Origin: Escherichia coli | Lineage (GTDB): Bacteria; Pseudomonadota; Gammaproteobacteria; Enterobacterales; Enterobacteriaceae | Length of the DNA: 15,313 bases | Direction: 5' to 3' (one strand) | NCBI RefSeq assembly: GCF_003334315.1 | Contig: NZ_QOWR01000076.1 | Part shown: piece by piece, positions 1 to 15,313 of the stretch | How the letters are laid out: each line of letters begins with the position of its first letter | Numbering within the stretch: position 1 is the stretch's first letter | The notes under the pieces: model-generated | What the model saw: only the letters and a program-made list of their open reading frames with translations | Databases searched by the model: none | What the model was told of the DNA's origin: nothing | Position numbers and translations under genes: made by a program

Positions 1-452
1 CTTTTCAAAAGGGTATTTTGGCTTTGACATATTAGGGGCTATTCCATTTCATCGTCCAACAAAATGGGTGCAGTACAGGGTTGATAGAAATATCTCCTGG
101 GGCTTCATCTTTCCAGACCTCAGAGTAAACCTGAAACCGGAAAGCTTCAGGCACCCGCCGTTATCTTACCCTTCCTCAACAAAATAGCTGTTTATTTATA
201 CAGTGAGTCCTGTTTCGGACTTCTCACTCCTCATTTAATCAACTGAAGCTGAACCCGTTTTTTTCTGCATGACTCAATCGTCAAAATTCTTCGCCACCAG
301 TCAGCACTGCCATAACTTGTCACATTGCAAAAGTAGCCAAATTGCTTCAGGCACCATCAGTTCACCATCACCAAAAAAAAGAAACATTCCAGAACTTCCG
401 CATCTCGCCCAGCCGCTCCGACTTCTATACTGAATAGAAAACGCCAACATAA

Positions 453-5974: not shown

Positions 5975-8900
5975 TTATTTCCGTACCCGATGTCGGTGCA
6001 GCCACATCAGCTTATACGCCGCCGGGATAATAAACAGCGACAGCAAAGGTGCGGTGATCATGCCGCCAATCATCGGCGCGGCAATCCGGCTCATCACCTC
6101 TGAACCAGCCCCCGTTCCCCACAGAATCGGCAGCAGACCGGCGATAATCACCGCCACCGTCATCGCTTTCGGGCGCACGCGCAGGACCGCGCCGTGATAT
6201 AACGCCTCATCCAGCTTCTGCTCGCTGAATGTTTGTGGATTATTCAACGACGGCACGGCCTCTATGGCGTGACGTAAATACATCAGCATCACCACGCCAA
6301 ATTCGGCGGCGACCCCGGCGAGGGCGATAAAGCCAGTGCCCGTCGCCACGGAAAGATGAAAGCCCATCCACCACAGCAACCAGATGCCGCCCACCAGCGC
6401 AAACGGTACGCTGCTGATAATCAGCAACGCTTCGCCCACCCGACGGAACGCCAGATACAACAGCACGAAGATAATCATCAACGTCATCGGCACCATGAGT
6501 TTAAGCTTATGGTTGGCGCGCTCCAGTAGCTCGAACTGCCCGGAGAATGCCACGCTGGTGCCCGGTTTTAACTGCACTTTTTCAGCTATCGCTTTTTGCA
6601 AATCGTGAACCACCGACACCATGTCACGATCGCGGGCATCGATATAAATCCAGCTCGTCGGGCGCGCATTCTCGGTTTTCAGCATCGACGGTCCGGTAGA
6701 GACTTTAATGTCGGCCACGTCTGCCAGGGTGATTTGCTGCTTCATCGGCGTCAGGATCGGCAGCTGGCGCAGTGCCTGCGGACTATCGCGCCAGCTTTGC
6801 GGATAACGCAGATTAATTGGATAACGGGCAATCCCTTCCACCGTTTCGCCAACCATCGCCCCGCCCACCGCAGAAGTCACAAACAACTGCACATCCGCCA
6901 CCGTCATACCGTAACGTGCGGCTTTTTCACGGTTAATCTCAACGTTGATATAGCGCCCACCTTCCAGCCGCTCGGCAAGCGCAGAAGCTACGCCTGGCAC
7001 CGTTCGCGCTACTTCTTCAATTTGCTCAGCCATCGCGTCGATATCCGCCAGCACAGTGCCGGAAACTTTAATGCCGATGGGGCTTTTAATGCCGGTTGAG
7101 AGCATATCGATACGGTTACGAATTGGCGGCACCCACAGATTCGCCAGCCCCGGCAGCCGCACGGTGTTATCCAGTTCCTCAATGATTTTGTCCATCGTCA
7201 TGCCTGGCCGCCACTGCTCCTGCGGCTTAAGCTGGATGGTCGTTTCTACCATCTCCAGCGGAGCAGAATCGGTGGCGGTTTCCGCTTTCCCGGTTTTGCC
7301 AAATACCCGCGCCACTTCAGGTACGCTCATAATTAGCTTGTCGGTTTTTTGCAGCATACTCGCCGCCTCTGCTGCGGAAATCCCCGGCAGCGTCGATGGC
7401 ATATACAACAAGTCGCCTTCATTGATCTGCGGTAAAAATTCCCCGCCAACTTTATTGAGCGGCCAGAGAACCGTCAGCACCGAAAGCGCCGCCACCAGCA
7501 GCGTGGTTTTCGGCCAGTGCAGTACTTTCAGCAACAGCGGATGATAAACACGAATCAAAAAGCGATTGAGCGGGTTACTGCTTTCCGGCGGAATTTTGCC
7601 ACGGATCCAGTAGCCCATCAGGATCGGGATCACTACGATCGCCAGCAGCGCCGCACCCGCCATCGCATACGTTTTGGTGAACGCCAACGGGCCAAACAGA
7701 CGCCCTTCCTGCCCTTCCAGGGTGAAGATCGGGATAAACGACAACGTGATAATCAGCAGACTGATAAATAGCGCCGGCCCCACTTCAACAGACGCATCGG
7801 TGATCACCTGCCAGCGCGTTTTATTATCCAGCGTGGCGTCAGGATGCTGGTGCTGCCACTCTTCCAGCCGTTTATGCGCATTCTCGATCATGACGATAGC
7901 AGCATCGACCATCGCCCCGACGGCAATCGCAATGCCACCCAACGACATAATATTGGCATTCAGTCCCTGGAAGTGCATGACAATAAAAGCAATACACAAC
8001 CCCAGCGGCAACGAAATAATCGCCACCAGCGCCGAGCGCACATGCCAGAGAAACAGCGCACAGACTACCGCCACCACAATAAACTCTTCCAGCAACTTGC
8101 CGCTGAGGTTGTCGATGGCGCGGTCAATGAGCTGGCTGCGATCGTATGTTGTAACTATCTCCACGCCTTCCGGCAGACTACTTTTCAGCGTTTCCAGTTT
8201 GTCCTTCACGGCGGCGATCACTTCTCGGGCGTTTTTGCCGGATCGCAGGATCACCACCCCGCCCGCCACTTCGCCTTCGCTGTTTAGTTCGGCAATGCCC
8301 CGGCGCATCTCCGGGCCAATCTGGACCTTCGCAACATCGCGCAGATAAACGGGCACGCCATTTTCACTGGCTTTTAAAACGATGTGATTAAAGTCGTCGA
8401 GCGTTTGCAGATAGCCGCTGGCGCGCACCATATATTCCGCTTCCGCCAGTTCGATCGACGAACCGCCCGCTTCCTGGTTTGAAGCATCCAGCGCGCTTTT
8501 TACTTCGGCGAGACTGATGCCATACTGCGCCAGGCGCTGGGGATCGATAACCACCTGATACTCTTTCACCACACCACCCACCGACGCCACTTCCGCAACG
8601 TCAGGGATGGTTTTCAGCTCATATTTGAGAAACCAGTCCTGTAATGAGCGTAAATCGGCCAGATCGTGCTTACCGCTGCGATCCACCAGTGCATATTCAT
8701 AGATCCAGCCAACACCCGTGGCATCTGGCCCCAGCTCGGCGCTGACTCCCGCAGGCAGCTTACCCTGTACCTGGTTGAGGTACTCCAGCACCCGCGAACG
8801 CGCCCAGTACGGATCGGTGCCATCTTCGAAAATGACATACACATAAGAGTCGCCAAACTGTGAGAAACCGCGCACAGTCTTCGCGCCAGGCACCGACAAC

Positions 8901-9118
8901 ATGGTGGTGGTTAGCGGATAAGTCACCTGATTTTCAACGATTTGTGGTGCCTGACCGGGATAGCTGGTTTTAATAATAACCTGCACATCGGAGAGATCCG
9001 GCAGCGCATCCACTGGCGTATTAATGATGGTCCAGGTGCCCCAGATGCTCAGAAACAACGCGCCCATCAGCACCAAAAAACGGTTCGCCACCGAGCGACG
9101 AATAATCCATTCAATCAT
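5975..9118 (-). CDS. cusA: CusA, RND-family inner-membrane Cu(I)/Ag(I) efflux pump
   Basis: 1047-aa ORF with typical RND architecture (12 transmembrane helices, two large periplasmic loops). The translation ([50 protein letters not shown]...) matches my recollection of E. coli CusA at full length. On the minus strand it starts 11 nt after the cusB stop, preceded by GGGA. Confidence 0.95.
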
Positions 9119-9129
9119 TGGTTATTCCC

Positions 9130-10353
9130 TCAATGCGCATGGGTAGCACTTTCAGAGCGCATCCGCTCCAGTGCGCCAGAAATATTGGCTTCGGAATCAA
9201 TCAGGAACAGGCCGCTGGAAACCACCTTTTCACCTTCCGCCAGACCAGAGCGTAATGCGGTGACGCCTTGCGATGCCTGGAAAACAGCAACGCGTTTCGG
9301 TACAAAGCGCCCGTCGGCATCAACGGTAATCACCCGCTGTTCGCTGCCGGTATCAATCAGCGCTTGTGACGGAATGAGCAGCATCGGTTCGCTGGCGGTG
9401 TTGAGTTGCAACCAGGCGTTCATGCCCGGTTTTAGCGCCTCGTCGGCGTTGTCGACTTCCAGACGCAGCTGCAGCGTGCGGGTCGCGGCATCCACGCCAG
9501 GTAGCAGCGTCCATTTGCGGATGGTGAGTGTTTTATCCGGTCGCGCCGGAACGGTGAGGGTAAACTGCGAGGCATCTTTCACCAGCCAGGCGATAGACTC
9601 CGGGATCGCAGCAGTGACCCACACCGGGTCCATACCCTGAATTTTCGCTACCACGTTATCTTTGGCGATATTCATTCCCGCGCGCAGATCAAACGCGGTG
9701 ATCACGCCATCAATGGGCGCTTTGAGCGTAAAGCGAGTCTGGATTTTTTGCGTGGCGATCAGGCGGCGAATATCCGCCTCCGGCATTCCCGCCAGTCGCA
9801 GCCGCTCAAGAATGCCTTCAGTCTGGGTCGCCGTACCGCCGGTTTCGCGCAGCAGTAAATACTCACTCTGCGCTTCCACCCAGTCAGGAATGGTCAGGTC
9901 GAGAAGCGGTGTGCCCTTTTGTACTTTATCGCCCACGGTAAGCGGATACACCTTGTCGATAAACCCGGCAGCGCGAGCCTGCACAATGGCATACTGATAC
10001 TCGTTGTAACTGACATTCGCCGGGAAACTCTGGGCAAAAGTCAGCGGTCCGCGCGTGACGGTAGCCGTTTTCACCCCCAGATTCTGCGTCTGAGTCGGGT
10101 CAATGCGCACACCAGACGCAGAACTCTCTTCATCGGCATATTTCGGCACCAGATCCATATCCATAAACGGCGATTTACCTGGTTTATCGAACCGCGTATT
10201 GGGATACATTAGGTCGTACCAGAATAAGATTTTACGTTCTGCGGTCGACGTTTTTTCTGCAGGCGGTTCCGCCTTTGCAACCCAGGTAAAACCTGCCGCA
10301 GAAATAATACCGCCCGCGATCATGCTGCCGATAATAAGCGCGATTTTTTTCAT
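9130..10353 (-). CDS. cusB: CusB, periplasmic membrane-fusion adaptor of the Cus efflux system
   Basis: 407-aa ORF with an N-terminal signal/anchor (MKKIALIIGSMIAGGIISAAGF). The N-terminal metal-binding methionines are visible in LMYPNTRFDKPGKSPFMDMDL. Correct size and position between cusF and cusA. Confidence 0.95.
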   Translation of the reverse strand: MKKIALIIGSMIAGGIISAAGFTWVAKAEPPAEKTSTAERKILFWYDLMYPNTRFDKPGKSPFMDMDLVPKYADEESSASGVRIDPTQTQNLGVKTATVTRGPLTFAQSFPANVSYNEYQYAIVQARAAGFIDKVYPLTVGDKVQKGTPLLDLTIPDWVEAQSEYLLLRETGGTATQTEGILERLRLAGMPEADIRRLIATQKIQTRFTLKAPIDGVITAFDLRAGMNIAKDNVVAKIQGMDPVWVTAAIPESIAWLVKDASQFTLTVPARPDKTLTIRKWTLLPGVDAATRTLQLRLEVDNADEALKPGMNAWLQLNTASEPMLLIPSQALIDTGSEQRVITVDADGRFVPKRVAVFQASQGVTALRSGLAEGEKVVSSGLFLIDSEANISGALERMRSESATHAH

Positions 10354-10368
10354 CTCATTAAACCTGGG

Positions 10369-10701
10369 TTACTGGCTGACTTTAATATCCTGTAATAAAG
10401 AAAGGTTGCCCTGCTGGACAAAATTAAACGCCACTTTGTCGCCGGTTTTAATTTCACTCATTTTCGTCTGCGGGGTGATGGTAAAGCGCATGGTCATCTC
10501 CGGCCAGTTCACAGCAGCAATCGGATCGTGATGGATGGTGATTTTTTTGCTTTCCAGATCAATACCCTTTACCTCGCCAGTGGCACTAATAACCTGTGGT
10601 TGTGCTTCGCTCATGGTTTCATGATGATGTTCGTTAGCCTGGGCATTAAAGCCAATAACGGTAAACAGACTGAACATTGCGACTTGCAGTGCTTTTTTCA
10701 T
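10369..10701 (-). CDS. cusF: CusF, periplasmic Cu(I)/Ag(I) metallochaperone
   Basis: 110-aa ORF with a signal peptide (MKKALQVAMFSLFTVIGFNAQA). The His/Trp/Met-x-Met ligand cluster is visible in ITIHHDPIAAVNWPEMTMRF. Good AGGAGAG Shine-Dalgarno on the minus strand just upstream of the ATG. Confidence 0.95.
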   Translation of the reverse strand: MKKALQVAMFSLFTVIGFNAQANEHHHETMSEAQPQVISATGEVKGIDLESKKITIHHDPIAAVNWPEMTMRFTITPQTKMSEIKTGDKVAFNFVQQGNLSLLQDIKVSQ

Positions 10702-10719
10702 TTATTCTCTCCTGGAGTT

Positions 10720-10855
10720 AAAAGTCATACTCTAAATAATTCGAGTTGCAGGAAGGCGACAAGCGAGTGAATCCCCAGGAGCTTACATAAGTAAGTGACT
10801 GGGGTGAGCGAACGCAGACGCAGCACATGCAACTTGAAGTATGACGAGTATATTG
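10720..10855. repeat. ERIC (enterobacterial repetitive intergenic consensus) element in the cusC-cusF spacer
   Basis: The core contains exact matches to both classical ERIC primer sites: GTGAATCCCCAGGAGCTTACAT at 10767..10788 (reverse complement of ERIC1R) and AAGTAAGTGACTGGGGTGAGCG at 10789..10810 (ERIC2). Imperfect palindromic arms flank it (GTCATAC at 10724-10730, GTATGAC at 10839-10845). The outer boundaries are approximate. Confidence 0.85.
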
Positions 10856-10858
10856 CTG

Positions 10859-12232
10859 TCAACCGCCACCAAGTGCGGTATACAAAGAAATTTCGTTAAC
10901 CTGACGGGCATAATTCAGGTCGAGTAAAGTTTGTCGGGTTGCAAATAAAGAACGCTCGGCATCCAGCACTTCCAGATAACTTACTGCGCCGTGCTGATAT
11001 AATGCCCGCGCCCGTTGCAAAGTAATTTGCAGCGATGCCAGATAACGCTGCTGGGCGCTAATTTGATCGTTCAGGCTTTGACGTAATGCCAGCGCATCTG
11101 CCACTTCTTTAAAGGCGTTCTGGATTTTCTGTTCATAATTCACCACCGACTGCTGCTGGCGAATTTCGGCGATATCCAGATTGGCCTGGTTGCGTCCGGC
11201 ATTAAAAATGGGGATCTCAATTTTGGGTATAAAATTCCACATCCCGCTGCTGGCGTTAAATAATGACGATAGATCGCTACTGGCGGTCGATATTCCGCTG
11301 GTCAGGCTTATAGACGGAAAAAATGCCGCGCGTGCAGCGCCAATATTGGCATTAGCCGCCATTAACGCGTGTTCAGCTTCCATAATATCCGGGCGCTGCA
11401 ATAAGATTTGCGACGACAATCCCGCCGGTAATTTAACGCTTTGCAGGCTGTCGCTGTTTACTGTCTGCGCTTGCGGCAGCTTGCCGTAGCTTCCCAATAA
11501 CAGTTGCAATGCATTATTCGCCTGCGCCAGTTCCCCCTGACGTTTAGCGATGTCGCTGCGGGTACTTTCAATCACCCCGCGAGCCTGTTCCAGCGCCAGA
11601 ACATTACTGCTACCTGTCAACAGTTGTTTTTCGACAAACGCATATGACTGCTGATAATTACGCAGCGTTTCTTCGGCTATTTGCAATTGCGCATACGCTA
11701 GCTGCTGATTGAAATAACTTTGCGCGACATTAGAAACCAGCAAAATATGCACCGCGCGCTGGGCTTCCTCAGTGGCTAAATAATTTTGGCGCTCGGCTTC
11801 GCTCATGTTCTTTAAGCGACCGAAAAAATCGAGGTCAAAGCTGGCGTTAAGGCCGGTCGAAAACTCCCGTGTCGTGGCGGTATTCCCTTTAAGATTACCG
11901 CTCCAGCTGCCGCTGCCCTCGCCATTGAGCTGTGGGTAGCGGTCGGCATCGGTCAGACGATATTGCGCCCGTGCCTCCTGCACTTTCAGCGTCGCCATGC
12001 GCAAATCCCGATTATTCACCAGCGCCTCGCTAATCAGCGTCTTCACCTGATTATCAACAAAAAAGGTGCGCCAGCCCGCGTTCTGATAGTTATCTGCTGC
12101 GTTAACCAGGCCGTTCTGGCTGAGTGAGAACTGCTGCGGCACGGGCATTGCCGGACGCTGATAATCCGGTGCCAGTGAACAACCGGTTAGCGCAAGGGCC
12201 ACACAAAATGGCAGAAGTTTACAAGGAGACAT
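10859..12232 (-). CDS. cusC: CusC, outer-membrane channel lipoprotein of the Cus efflux system (TolC-like)
   Basis: 457-aa ORF with a lipoprotein signal and lipobox (MSPCKLLPFCVALALTGCSLAP). Outer-membrane-factor family sequence, divergent from cusR and first gene of the cusCFBA operon. Confidence 0.95.
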   Translation of the reverse strand: MSPCKLLPFCVALALTGCSLAPDYQRPAMPVPQQFSLSQNGLVNAADNYQNAGWRTFFVDNQVKTLISEALVNNRDLRMATLKVQEARAQYRLTDADRYPQLNGEGSGSWSGNLKGNTATTREFSTGLNASFDLDFFGRLKNMSEAERQNYLATEEAQRAVHILLVSNVAQSYFNQQLAYAQLQIAEETLRNYQQSYAFVEKQLLTGSSNVLALEQARGVIESTRSDIAKRQGELAQANNALQLLLGSYGKLPQAQTVNSDSLQSVKLPAGLSSQILLQRPDIMEAEHALMAANANIGAARAAFFPSISLTSGISTASSDLSSLFNASSGMWNFIPKIEIPIFNAGRNQANLDIAEIRQQQSVVNYEQKIQNAFKEVADALALRQSLNDQISAQQRYLASLQITLQRARALYQHGAVSYLEVLDAERSLFATRQTLLDLNYARQVNEISLYTALGGG

Positions 12233-12388: not shown

Positions 12389-13072
12389 ATGAAACTGTTG
12401 ATTGTCGAAGATGAAAAGAAAACCGGAGAATACTTGACCAAAGGGTTAACCGAAGCCGGTTTTGTGGTCGATTTGGCCGACAACGGGCTGAATGGCTACC
12501 ATCTGGCGATGACCGGTGATTATGATCTGATAATCCTCGATATTATGCTGCCGGACGTGAACGGCTGGGATATCGTGCGCATGTTACGCTCCGCCAATAA
12601 AGGGATGCCGATTCTGTTGCTTACCGCGCTTGGCACCATTGAACATCGCGTCAAGGGGCTGGAGTTGGGGGCAGATGACTACCTGGTGAAGCCATTCGCT
12701 TTTGCTGAACTGCTGGCGCGGGTGCGCACATTACTGCGGCGCGGGGCGGCGGTGATTATCGAAAGTCAGTTTCAGGTTGCCGATTTGATGGTCGATCTCG
12801 TCAGCCGCAAAGTCACCCGCAGCGGCACGCGCATCACTTTGACCAGTAAAGAGTTTACTCTGCTGGAGTTCTTCCTTCGCCATCAGGGCGAAGTGCTGCC
12901 CCGCTCGCTTATCGCCTCGCAGGTATGGGACATGAATTTTGACAGCGATACCAATGCTATTGATGTGGCGGTGAAGCGGCTGCGCGGCAAAATCGACAAC
13001 GACTTTGAGCCGAAGCTAATTCAGACCGTGCGCGGCGTGGGTTACATGCTTGAGGTGCCGGATGGTCAGTAA
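12389..13072 (+). CDS. cusR: CusR, OmpR-family response regulator of the CusS/CusR two-component system
   Basis: 227-aa ORF, GGAGG at 12380-12384. Receiver domain with the conserved phospho-acceptor context ([17 protein letters not shown]) and a C-terminal winged-helix domain ([21 protein letters not shown]...). Matches my recollection of E. coli CusR. Confidence 0.95.
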
Positions 13073-14510
13073 GCCATTTCAGCGCCCGTTTTCGCTGGCA
13101 ACCCGCCTGACCTTTTTTATCAGCCTGGCCACCATCGCGGCGTTTTTCGCCTTTGCATGGATCATGATCCACTCAGTAAAAGTTCATTTTGCCGAGCAGG
13201 ATATTAATGATTTAAAAGAGATTAGCGCCACCCTTGAACGGGTACTAAATCACCCTGACGAAACGCAAGCCCGACGCTTAATGACGCTGGAAGATATCGT
13301 CAGTGGTTATTCCAATGTGTTGATTTCCCTGGCAGATAGTCAGGGTAAAACGGTGTATCACTCCCCCGGTGCGCCGGATATCCGCGAGTTTACGCGTGAC
13401 GCCATACCCGATAAAGACGCTCAGGGTGGCGAGGTGTATCTCCTTTCCGGCCCGACGATGATGATGCCAGGCCACGGTCACGGGCATATGGAACACAGCA
13501 ACTGGCGGATGATTAACTTGCCGGTTGGCCCGTTGGTGGACGGCAAACCGATTTATACGCTCTACATCGCGCTTTCGATCGATTTTCATCTTCATTACAT
13601 AAATGATTTGATGAATAAACTTATTATGACCGCATCGGTAATCAGCATCCTGATCGTCTTTATCGTACTGTTGGCGGTACATAAAGGTCACGCGCCGATC
13701 CGCAGCGTCAGCCGTCAAATCCAGAATATTACCTCGAAAGATCTCGACGTTCGCCTCGACCCGCAGACCGTGCCGATTGAGCTGGAACAGCTGGTACTGT
13801 CGTTCAACCATATGATCGAGCGTATTGAGGATGTCTTTACCCGCCAGTCCAATTTCTCAGCGGATATCGCTCACGAAATTCGCACGCCGATTACCAATCT
13901 CATCACGCAAACGGAAATCGCCCTCAGCCAGTCTCGCAGCCAGAAGGAGCTGGAAGATGTGCTCTACTCTAATCTCGAAGAGCTGACGCGAATGGCGAAA
14001 ATGGTCAGCGATATGCTGTTTCTCGCTCAGGCCGATAACAACCAGCTAATCCCCGAAAAGAAAATGCTCAACCTGGCGGATGAAGTCGGCAAAGTGTTCG
14101 ATTTTTTCGAGGCGTTAGCGGAAGATCGCGGCGTGGAGTTGCGATTTGTTGGCGACAAATGTCAGGTTGCGGGCGATCCGCTGATGCTGCGTCGGGCGTT
14201 AAGCAACCTGCTTTCTAATGCCCTGCGTTATACGCCACCCAGTGAGGCTATTGTAGTGCGCTGCCAGACGGTCAATCATCAGGTGCAAGTTTCCGTCGAA
14301 AACCCCGGTACGCCCATTGCGCCCGAGCACTTACCGCGATTGTTTGACCGTTTCTATCGCGTTGACCCTTCCCGCCAGCGAAAAGGCGAAGGTAGCGGCA
14401 TTGGGCTGGCGATAGTGAAATCGATTGTTGTCGCGCATAAAGGCACGGTTGCAGTAACGTCAGATGCGCGGGGGACAAGGTTTGTGATTATGCTGCCAGA
14501 GAGAGAGTGA
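13062..14510 (+). CDS. cusS: CusS, copper/silver-sensing histidine kinase
   Basis: ATG at 13062 preceded by GAGG at 13052-13055, giving a 480-aa product ([41 protein letters not shown]...). Two transmembrane helices flank a periplasmic sensor domain, followed by HAMP, an H-box ([15 protein letters not shown]) and an ATPase domain ([13 protein letters not shown]). The start overlaps the cusR stop by 11 nt. The track's TTG at 13050 was rejected. Confidence 0.95.
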
Positions 14511-15246
14511 TTATTAAGTTCAAATTCAGGGCGTGGTGCATCACCTCCTGGTATTGTTGATCAACAAATTAGAGAAAAACTTATTAAACATATGAAATAT
14601 CGAAGGCTTTTATTTTTCAAAGTTTCACGAGATGTTTGTATATGAAACTTAGTTAAATCTGTGTTTCTTCCAATTGTAGATCACAATGCCCTTTCTAAAT
14701 TTTCATCGTTATAAACAAGCCATCTATCATATAAAGCAATGAATAATTTAATCGCGATTAATCATCATTAATTGTTATATTATTCACTCAATCTATTTAT
14801 CAAGTGAATTTGATAAATTCCTAATTTAAAATATCCACTATTGAGCCAGTATTTAACAACGTTAAGATGTGCAATGTGCAGATCATGTTATCAGGGTGGA
14901 GCGGTAGCATATATTTCTTATGCAATCATTCATTTTAATAATGTTAATTGGATTATTTATTGCTGTGAATAAAAATATATTATGAATATTGGTTTAACTT
15001 TACGTTTTTGTTACTCGTTGTGATATGCGTACCTGTCCTGAATAACGCCAAGAAACAAGAGGTTGAGCTTGTGATTATTTTTTTGACTGAACAGACACCC
15101 GTTTCTGTAAAGTAATATTTAAACAAAATTCTCACATAACCATAGCATTTTCTGTTCCTTCCCTAATAACGTCTGAAGTCGTCCCGCTTATCACATTATC
15201 CGCAGTTGTACGGTACGGATCATTATTCATTTTACTGGAGGTTGCT
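14511..15246. other. AT-rich non-coding spacer between cusS and the VgrG-like gene; likely promoter / xenogeneic-silencing region
   Basis: No ORF of 60 aa or more on either strand in the track. Two 60-nt lines I counted by hand (14761-14820 and 14941-15000) are each about 20% G+C, against roughly 50% in the flanking genes. Contains interleaved short palindromes at 14782-14820. Confidence 0.6.
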
Positions 15247-15313
15247 ATGTCAACCGGATTACGTTTCACACTGGAAGTGGACGGCCTGCCGCCGGATGCT
15301 TTTGCGGTGGTTT
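15247..15313 (+). CDS. vgrG: 5' end (22 codons) of a VgrG-like type VI secretion spike protein gene, truncated by the window edge
   Basis: ATG at 15247 preceded by GGAGG at 15237-15241 with a 5-nt spacer. The translation MSTGLRFTLEVDGLPPDAFAVV fits the N-terminal pattern of VgrG/gp27-like proteins as I recall it (compare V. cholerae VgrG1, which I recall as MATLAYSIEVEGLEDETLVV...). Only 22 residues are visible, so the family call is provisional. Confidence 0.5.
   Translation, partial: MSTGLRFTLEVDGLPPDAFAVV

Follow-up and report, generated by a model that had tools for sequence, protein, structure and literature searches.

The structure of the Ag(I)-bound sensor domain of CusS (PDB 5KU5) is reportedly due to Affandi, Issaian & McEvoy (2016), and Affandi & McEvoy (2019) are said to have found that the interface site alone is required for metal-induced dimerisation. 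According to papers citing this structure, the dimer holds four Ag(I), two of which are bound at the dimer interface by H42, F43 and H176, while one per monomer resides in an outer loop with S84, M133, M135 and H145 as ligands; in the same papers, H138, H140 and H142, the histidines of a Gly-His repeat, are absent from the reported Ag(I) ligands (PMC10100754; PMC7763554). These papers furthermore describe the side chain of M134 in two positions in 5KU5 (PMC10100754) and an affinity of the sensor domain for Ag(I) that is only micromolar (PMC7763554). As stated in two other papers, metal-induced dimerisation needs the interface site only, and dimerisation in turn activates autophosphorylation (PMC8399564; PMC12589874). 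Since the metal in 5KU5 is Ag(I) and not Cu(I), the ligands offered by the loop to Cu(I) could differ from those listed.

The role of the loop in copper resistance was approached by three deletions in CusS, comprising residues 129-138 (the Met triad), 136-148 (the His-rich part) and 129-152 (both). One of the partial deletions left resistance fully intact and the other preserved most of it, while deletion of residues 129-152 yielded a null-like phenotype (PMC10100754). The Discussion of that study holds the loss of the His-rich part to be fully tolerated and that of the Met triad to be largely so; in its Results, the labels of the two partial deletions are swapped with respect to the paper's own definitions, and hence it is uncertain to which half the mild defect belongs. 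As for the deletion of residues 129-152, its null phenotype could result from misfolding instead of lost metal binding. In experimental evolution with silver, mutations in cusS arose in the N-terminal tail, in TM1 and in the kinase core, and none in the sensor domain (PMC10920338).

The stretch of DNA analysed here, referred to as the window, comprises 15,313 nucleotides and matches the E. coli L6-21 chromosome, as well as other strains, with 100% identity over its whole length. In the RefSeq annotation of L6-21, the genes ybdK, ybdJ, ybdF, nfsB, ybdG, pheP and cusA-cusB-cusF-cusC are assigned to the minus strand, while cusR-cusS are divergently oriented on the plus strand. The cusCFBA efflux operon, which constitutes the regulated output of the sensor and is divergent from cusRS, occupies positions 5975-12232 (minus strand) according to the annotation of this 100%-identical locus. 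The response regulator gene cusR (12389-13072, plus strand) overlaps by 11 bases with the start of cusS, the coding sequence of which (13062-14510, plus strand) specifies 482 amino acids arranged into TM1, the sensor domain, TM2, HAMP, HisKA with H271, and HATPase_c.

The product of cusS scores 986 bits against the NCBIfam model of Cu(+)/Ag(+) sensor histidine kinases, NF007345 (cutoff 423; residues 1-481), and 523 bits against TIGR01386, which represents heavy-metal sensor kinases (cutoff 293), while CusR reaches 508 bits against NCBIfam NF007346 (cutoff 420). Pfam places the sensor domain PF21085 at residues 8-180, HAMP at 210-257, HisKA at 262-326 and HATPase_c at 371-481, and the phospho-acceptor H271 is invariant in an alignment of orthologues. 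The periplasmic sensor domain (residues 39-187; 13176-13622, plus strand) is of the PDC/PAS-like fold, as indicated by PF21085 and by 100% identity to 5KU5, from which it differs nowhere, S84, M133, M135, H145 and the entire loop included. Residues 266-479 match the kinase-core structure 7ZP0; a difference exists at the C-terminus, which reads ...VIMLPERE in the 482-residue CusS of this strain and ...VITLP in 7ZP0. Judged by these sequence comparisons, the protein is CusS, encoded in a standard E. coli cusRS/cusCFBA locus.

All ligands reported for both metal sites are present in the CusS of the window. According to the papers citing 5KU5, H42-F43 (13185-13190, plus strand) form the N-terminal helix half of the Ag(I)/Cu(I) signalling site at the dimer interface and H176 (13587-13589, plus strand) contributes the C-terminal helix half from the other monomer, while S84 (13311-13313, plus strand) is the fourth ligand of the internal Ag(I) site in the loop.

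The Met/His-rich stretch of CusS is located at 13458-13496 (plus strand), in frame with the open reading frame 13050-14510. Counted from the annotated start codon ATG at 13062, it hence corresponds to residues 133-145 of the 482. Its codons, ATG ATG ATG CCA GGC CAC GGT CAC GGG CAT ATG GAA CAC, translate exactly into the Met3-Pro-(Gly-His)3-Met-Glu-His cluster which a preliminary description of this DNA, made from the sequence alone, had placed in the CusS sensor domain. Three parts can be discerned on the plus strand, the Met triad M133-M134-M135 (13458-13466), in which M133 and M135 are Ag(I) ligands according to the papers mentioned, the (Gly-His)3 segment of residues 137-142 (13470-13487), and M143-E144-H145 (13488-13496), the last residue of which is likewise a reported ligand.

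Eight of the 13 residues are Met or His, and if the 12 proteins encoded in the window supply the background frequency of Met+His, the binomial probability of at least 8 in 13 amounts to 6e-8 per segment of 13 residues. The expected count of such a density is 2.6e-4 across these 12 proteins and about 0.08 per proteome of 1.3 million residues. Moreover, a single one of 20,000 residue shuffles of CusS matched the Met/His density of the motif, which is also the sole stretch with at least 7 Met/His per 13 residues in all six reading frames of the window. The composition of the motif is far from chance expectation, and its ligand density is that of Met/His-rich Cu(I)/Ag(I) capture segments, which constitute a functional class and not a homologous family. 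The three Gly-His units differ from one another in their DNA (GGCCAC / GGTCAC / GGGCAT), so that the repeat is imperfect at this level, and no repeat was called at these codons by Tandem Repeats Finder. An antisense open reading frame of 177 amino acids (13278-13811, minus strand) extends across the motif; it is not annotated by RefSeq in the identical locus and was taken as a chance frame.

Mapping onto the structure of the sensor domain, which had been suggested along with the motif, identifies the segment as a beta-hairpin loop between strands 125-131 and 145-159 in an AlphaFold2 model. This model of full-length CusS was based on an alignment of 77 sequences and has a mean pLDDT of 76.7; its sensor domain superimposes on 5KU5 with a TM-score of 0.90 and an rmsd of about 2.2 A and is flanked by helices 12-62 and 174-209. 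In the model, strand 125-131 runs into M133-M135 and H145 opens strand 145-159, while residues 136-143 (PGHGHGHM) are the only ones of the sensor domain with a pLDDT below 50. The predicted strand borders would place the reported ligands at the base of the hairpin, on either side, while its flexible tip would be formed by the Gly-His repeat. In the four chains of 5KU5, 144-148 of the 150 construct residues are modelled, and hence the crystal with bound Ag shows the loop for the most part.

From the ligand list S84/M133/M135/H145 it follows that, apart from S84, all ligands of the second site lie within the motif. The preliminary description had thus been right to expect a segment of Cu(I)/Ag(I) ligand type, the motif being the internal Ag(I) loop site of the published work (PMC10100754; PMC7763554). 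Its question as to whether the stretch is among the experimentally assigned ligands receives a divided answer from the same papers, affirmative for M133, M135 and H145 and negative for H138, H140 and H142. In a similar manner, its proposal of a metal-capture segment holds in so far as the loop binds Ag(I), but the loop is accessory, the switch being the interface site of H42, F43 and H176 (PMC8399564; PMC12589874).

With good confidence, the motif can be regarded as the known internal soft-metal site of CusS, which is accessory and redundant and does not constitute the switch, and to which a part in capture, buffering or tuning is ascribed by inference. In this explanation, M133 and M135 at the end of one strand, H145 at the start of the next and S84 together hold one metal ion per monomer, with PGHGHGHM serving as the flexible tip of the hairpin. 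The switch is the interface site, composed of H42 and F43 of one monomer and H176 of the other. Metal binding at the interface causes the sensor domains to dimerise and activates autophosphorylation at H271, upon which CusR is phosphorylated and cusCFBA induced. Published work and sequence identity to the crystallised protein establish what the protein is, which ligands it uses, that a dimer carries four Ag(I), that each half of the loop is dispensable and that the interface site suffices for dimerisation; autophosphorylation and cusC induction in dependence on Cu(I)/Ag(I) are likewise known for the identical sensor domain (PMC10100754; PMC7763554; PMC8399564; PMC12589874). Beyond this, the loop would function as a low-specificity capture or buffering antenna, in which selection maintains Met/His density and not a fixed geometry, so that M134, H138, H140, H142 and M143 could interchange. 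It might also adjust how sensitive the sensor is, or lend stability to the domain when metal is bound.

The foremost alternative is that the loop is neutral. It would then be a rapidly evolving hairpin on the protein surface, Met/His-rich by coincidence in E. coli, to which Ag(I) binds adventitiously at crystallisation concentrations, and would lack any sensing role in vivo. The absence of adaptive mutations from the sensor domain in the evolution experiment with silver (PMC10920338) and the only micromolar Ag(I) affinity of the domain (PMC7763554) are in line with this explanation, as is the observation that the loss of either half of the loop has little or no consequence (PMC10100754), and it is opposed by the loss of function upon deletion of the whole loop (PMC10100754).

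For the comparison among orthologues, 102 full-length CusS-like proteins of 470-500 amino acids and 57-100% identity were collected from Enterobacterales, comprising Citrobacter, Salmonella, Klebsiella, Enterobacter, Serratia, Yersinia, Erwinia and other genera. Full-length CusS served as query; the sensor domain alone gave almost only gene fragments. Likewise, a search of a representative library with the sensor domain returned 41 matches, mostly fragments, the domain being too divergent for sensors of the CopS/PcoS type to be detected with a single sequence; statements on the wider family are therefore based on PMC7763554. Across the 102 orthologues, H42, F43, H176, H178 and R149 are invariant, while the ligands of the loop site are conserved to 37% (S84), 11% (M133), 25% (M135) and 37% (H145), and M143 to 37%. 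The mean identity to E. coli CusS is 25% for residues 133-145, as compared with 45-63% elsewhere in the sensor domain and 75% for the cytoplasmic part, and the exact 13-residue motif was encountered solely in E. coli clusters. This drift of the ligand positions, along with the restriction of the exact motif to E. coli, is what a neutral loop would display.

The composition of the loop, on the other hand, persists. The Met+His fraction is 0.20 in the loop and 0.055 in the remaining periplasmic domain of the 102 orthologues, i.e. a 3.7-fold enrichment, and at least three Met/His/Cys occur in 73% of the loops as opposed to 0.6% of segments of 15 residues taken at random from these domains, with the loop of E. 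coli and its 8 Met/His being the richest. In addition, no residue of the loop is kept better than H138, with which the series of three His in the repeat begins, this position being His in 90 of the 102 orthologues and in 47 of 58 non-redundant ones (81-88%). Both observations speak against neutrality. Two findings would, according to the preliminary description, count against a role in metal capture. The first, a disordered and non-conserved linker of which the deletion has no effect on signalling, is encountered in part, given that the tip is flexible, the sequence drifts and half-deletions have little or no effect, but deletion of residues 129-152 abolishes function. Concerning the second, absence of the segment from most functional orthologues, the exact motif is indeed confined to E. 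coli and the functional sensor CopS has no such loop (PMC7763554), which is also compatible with neutrality.

Within the species, the cusS segment was found in 5,334 of 5,426 complete E. coli genomes. Length variants were sought with synthetic (GH)2 and (GH)4 queries, to which variants match without gap and the wild type with a gap of 6 bases. The supposition that the length of the segment may vary between strains proved correct, yet such variation is rare: (GH)2 occurs in one of the 5,334 genomes (LR-71-1) and (GH)4 in three (PSS-08-2, SY033 and TUM11353), whereas (GH)3 is kept in about 99.9% of the cusS-bearing genomes. In all four variants cusS is intact and in frame. The three (GH)4 expansions all duplicate GGTCAC in genes that are 25-56 substitutions apart, and hence expansion is recurrent. 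The (GH)4 CusS of SY033 measures 482 amino acids as well and ends in ...VITLPA, which is equivalent to a 480-residue form with three repeats. Nevertheless, the segment is not a hypervariable coding repeat of the contingency type, as it features no perfect tandem DNA repeat and four length variants in 5,334 genomes. Indels of at least 12 bases were absent from the cusS segment among the records of these genomes, and a search for Met2 and Met4 alleles, effective up to about 2 substitutions from the present allele, detected none; in more distant backgrounds such variants could be missed.

Three further candidates for length variation were rejected. A deletion of 9 bases by the motif, residing on a 14.6-kb 'plasmid' contig of GN06156, belongs to an indel-ridden and frameshifted pseudogene that still encodes three Gly-His and was attributed to assembly noise. 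The singletons P0075 (residues 113-139 deleted) and P0078 (103-140 deleted) also lose neighbouring structure and were judged to be defective alleles or artefacts and not loop-length variants.

Codon 133 was typed with allele-specific queries of 31 bases, and because genomes with other changes in the 31-mer are not counted, all resulting figures are lower bounds. By this procedure, M133I (ATG -> ATT) is carried by at least 880 + 337 = 1,217 of the 5,334 genomes, i.e. about 23%, and ATG is found in at least 2,493. A literature search for M133I in CusS yielded no report of it. The cluster representative P0070 also carries G141R. The sampled cusS alleles differ by up to about 5% in DNA, and in all 12 of those chosen to span the identity range the residues of the motif other than 133 are unchanged, with synonymous differences at T132, P136, G137 and G141.

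The frequency of M133I, at least 23% of genomes, again suits a neutral loop, but the remainder of the motif is fixed in the sampled alleles in spite of synonymous changes within it, and (GH)3 is nearly universal. As far as can be told from sequence comparison, the Met/His enrichment, the retention of H138 and the near-fixed motif with its (GH)3 would argue against pure neutrality, which is considered unlikely, though it remains the strongest of the rival explanations; the two others, discussed in the following, are less likely.

One of these proposes that the hairpin is chiefly structural, i.e. required for folding, stability or the correct arrangement of beta-sheet and signalling helices, with metal binding being incidental. 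Such a role would account for the null phenotype of the 129-152 deletion, which leaves the interface site untouched (PMC10100754), and fits a rather constant length, given that positions 131-147 span 17 residues in 72 of the 102 orthologues and that the invariant R149 follows directly after the loop. However, CusS tolerates the partial deletions, which remove 10-13 residues, and a strict need for length or shape is thus hard to maintain (PMC10100754), Citrobacter-type orthologues possess a loop that is four residues shorter, and the conserved Met/His enrichment would be left unexplained. A predominantly structural role is therefore regarded as improbable.

Proteins that pass on Cu(I) in the periplasm typically possess Met/His/Trp sites. 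The last proposal, that the loop serves for docking or hand-off and accepts Cu(I)/Ag(I) from CusF or another partner in the periplasm, whereby occupancy of the sensor would be coupled to pump loading, has circumstantial appeal in view of an exposed and flexible loop with soft ligands and of cusF in the neighbouring operon, but is most improbable, because no supporting data were found in the literature, the isolated domain binds Ag(I) directly (PMC10100754; PMC7763554), and the sequence of the loop, unlike that of usual protein-protein interfaces, is unconserved.

An accessory metal site thus remains the preferred explanation. The invariant interface, the drifting loop ligands, the preserved ligand density and the tolerance of M133I and of half-deletions, considered jointly, would fit capture or tuning better than sensing by a fixed geometry. 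A more far-reaching extension, in which the natural alleles M133I, (GH)2 and (GH)4 set the Cu/Ag threshold or the balance between Ag and Cu, and H138, though no ligand in the Ag(I) crystal, is the Cu(I) ligand of the loop that matters physiologically, is doubtful.

The Met/His loop of CusS is already known, and its recognition in this DNA is correct but ordinary: metal binding by the loop dates from crystallography in 2016 and the deletions from 2023, so that confirmation adds nothing new on CusS. What is new are small details, namely the frequency of M133I, the rare and recurrent repeat-number alleles and the conservation of H138. About a quarter of E. coli genomes do without M133, one of the crystallographic ligands. 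M133I, the (GH)n variants and H138 provide cheap alleles for probing the tuning of the sensor, which is of relevance for the way in which clinical and farm isolates tolerate silver and copper.

Among the known relatives, SilS, the copper/silver sensor kinase of the plasmid-borne sil operon, belongs to the same family, shares the architecture of CusS and is 57% identical to it overall, while the sensor domains are only about 30% identical. SilS shares the interface residues of CusS (HF and FHLH) and features, in the position of the CusS loop, one that resembles it in length, EDPAGPMDTGSEMKMET, which contains three Met but no His; H138 is replaced by Asp and H145 by Met, while M143 is kept. The Cu-sensing histidine kinase CopS of Pseudomonas aeruginosa shares the His/Phe/His site at the dimer interface with CusS (PMC7763554). 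CopS is devoid of the loop and binds 2 Cu per dimer as compared with 4 metal ions in CusS, yet it senses copper, and it acts as a Cu-dependent phosphatase (PMC7763554). Beyond the sensor kinases, the Met triad of CusS has been likened to the Met-rich loops of copper oxidases (PMC10100754). In the Met-rich insert of CueO and in SilE/PcoE, as in the loop of CusS, a flexible and exposed cluster of thioether and imidazole groups is found, the composition of which is more conserved than its sequence. These proteins share no homology with the CusS loop, which is a 13-residue hairpin within a PDC-like fold.

The number of Gly-His repeats in the Met/His-rich periplasmic loop of CusS (residues 133-145, window 13458-13496) is subject to variation among E. 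coli strains. The window carries three repeats, (GH)3, at 13470-13487, while rare, in-frame alleles (loci L004-L007) feature either two repeats, as in strain LR-71-1, or four, as in PSS-08-2, SY033 and TUM11353. In all three (GH)4 alleles the duplicated unit is GGTCAC, and since these duplications reside in cusS backgrounds that are 25-56 substitutions apart, the expansion to four repeats is recurrent.

Among the loop residues, the highest conservation in Enterobacterales orthologues is displayed by H138, the first histidine of the repeat (codon 138, window 13473-13475), which is kept in 90 of 102 sequences and in 47 of the 58 non-redundant ones. The reported Ag(I) ligands of the loop site, namely S84, M133, M135 and H145 (PDB 5KU5), do not include H138. 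At the first of the loop methionines, isoleucine replaces M133 (ATG to ATT, window 13458-13460) in at least 1,217 of 5,334 complete E. coli genomes bearing cusS, a total that is the sum of two haplotypes represented by 880 and 337 genomes. Natural M133I swaps out a crystallographic Ag(I) ligand; no mention of this substitution in CusS was found in the searchable literature. Periplasmic deletions have been described in PMC10100754, where the Results assign loss of the histidine-rich stretch to the 129-138 deletion and loss of the methionine triad to the 136-148 deletion, whereas the definitions of the same paper and its Figure 2 legend give the reverse assignment. Owing to these reversed labels, it is ambiguous which half of the loop causes the mild copper-resistance defect.

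Beyond the sensor domain, E. coli CusS occurs with two C-terminal forms, encoded at the 3' end of cusS (window 14487-14510). The 482-aa protein of the window terminates in ...VIMLPERE, while the SY033 (GH)4 allele, likewise of 482 aa (480 aa if three repeats were present), terminates in ...VITLPA; the kinase-core construct of structure 7ZP0 ends in ...VITLP and thus corresponds to the second form. At the 5' end, cusS shares its first 11 bases (window 13062-13072) with cusR, as is typical of translationally coupled genes in two-component operons. An antisense ORF of 177 aa (13278-13811, minus strand) overlaps the motif; it is devoid of RefSeq annotation in the 100%-identical cus locus of E. coli L6-21 and is probably a chance ORF.

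The junction 3' of cusS (window 14511-15313; locus L010) differs between strains. Here, beyond a gap of 736 bases, a type VI secretion island comprising VgrG, a DcrB-like protein and a truncated PAAR protein, and then an ISAs1 transposase, are inserted ahead of a frameshifted nfrB, whereas nfrB immediately follows cusS in SY033, and LR-71-1 as well as pEcFELIX533.1 harbor an IS1 element at this junction. Upstream of ybdK, at the left edge of the window, positions 1-30 hold the end of an IS150 transposase gene on the minus strand, and positions 29-246 a hypothetical pseudogene with a frameshift.

Copies of cus genes are also found on plasmid-labelled contigs. The 128.8-kb E. coli 'non-mobilizable plasmid' pEcFELIX533.1 (NZ_CP137697.1, locus L011) contains a segment that usually lies on the chromosome, running from ybdG via pheP, cusABFC, cusRS, nfrA and ybcH up to envY, and the sensor domain of its CusS is identical to that of the window; it may be a product of misassembly or a piece excised from the chromosome. 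The cusRS copy on the 14.6-kb linear 'plasmid' of strain GN06156 (NZ_CP095532.1, locus L001) is full of small indels, is annotated as frameshifted pseudogenes and appears to reflect low-quality assembly and not real biology.

In the silver system, SilS, encoded on plasmid pKP110-3 (L009:1093-2562), exhibits the loop EDPAGPMDTGSEMKMET in place of the CusS motif. As this loop contains three methionines and is devoid of histidine, the paralogue retains a thioether-only version, and classical plasmid SilS features Asp at the position of CusS H138.
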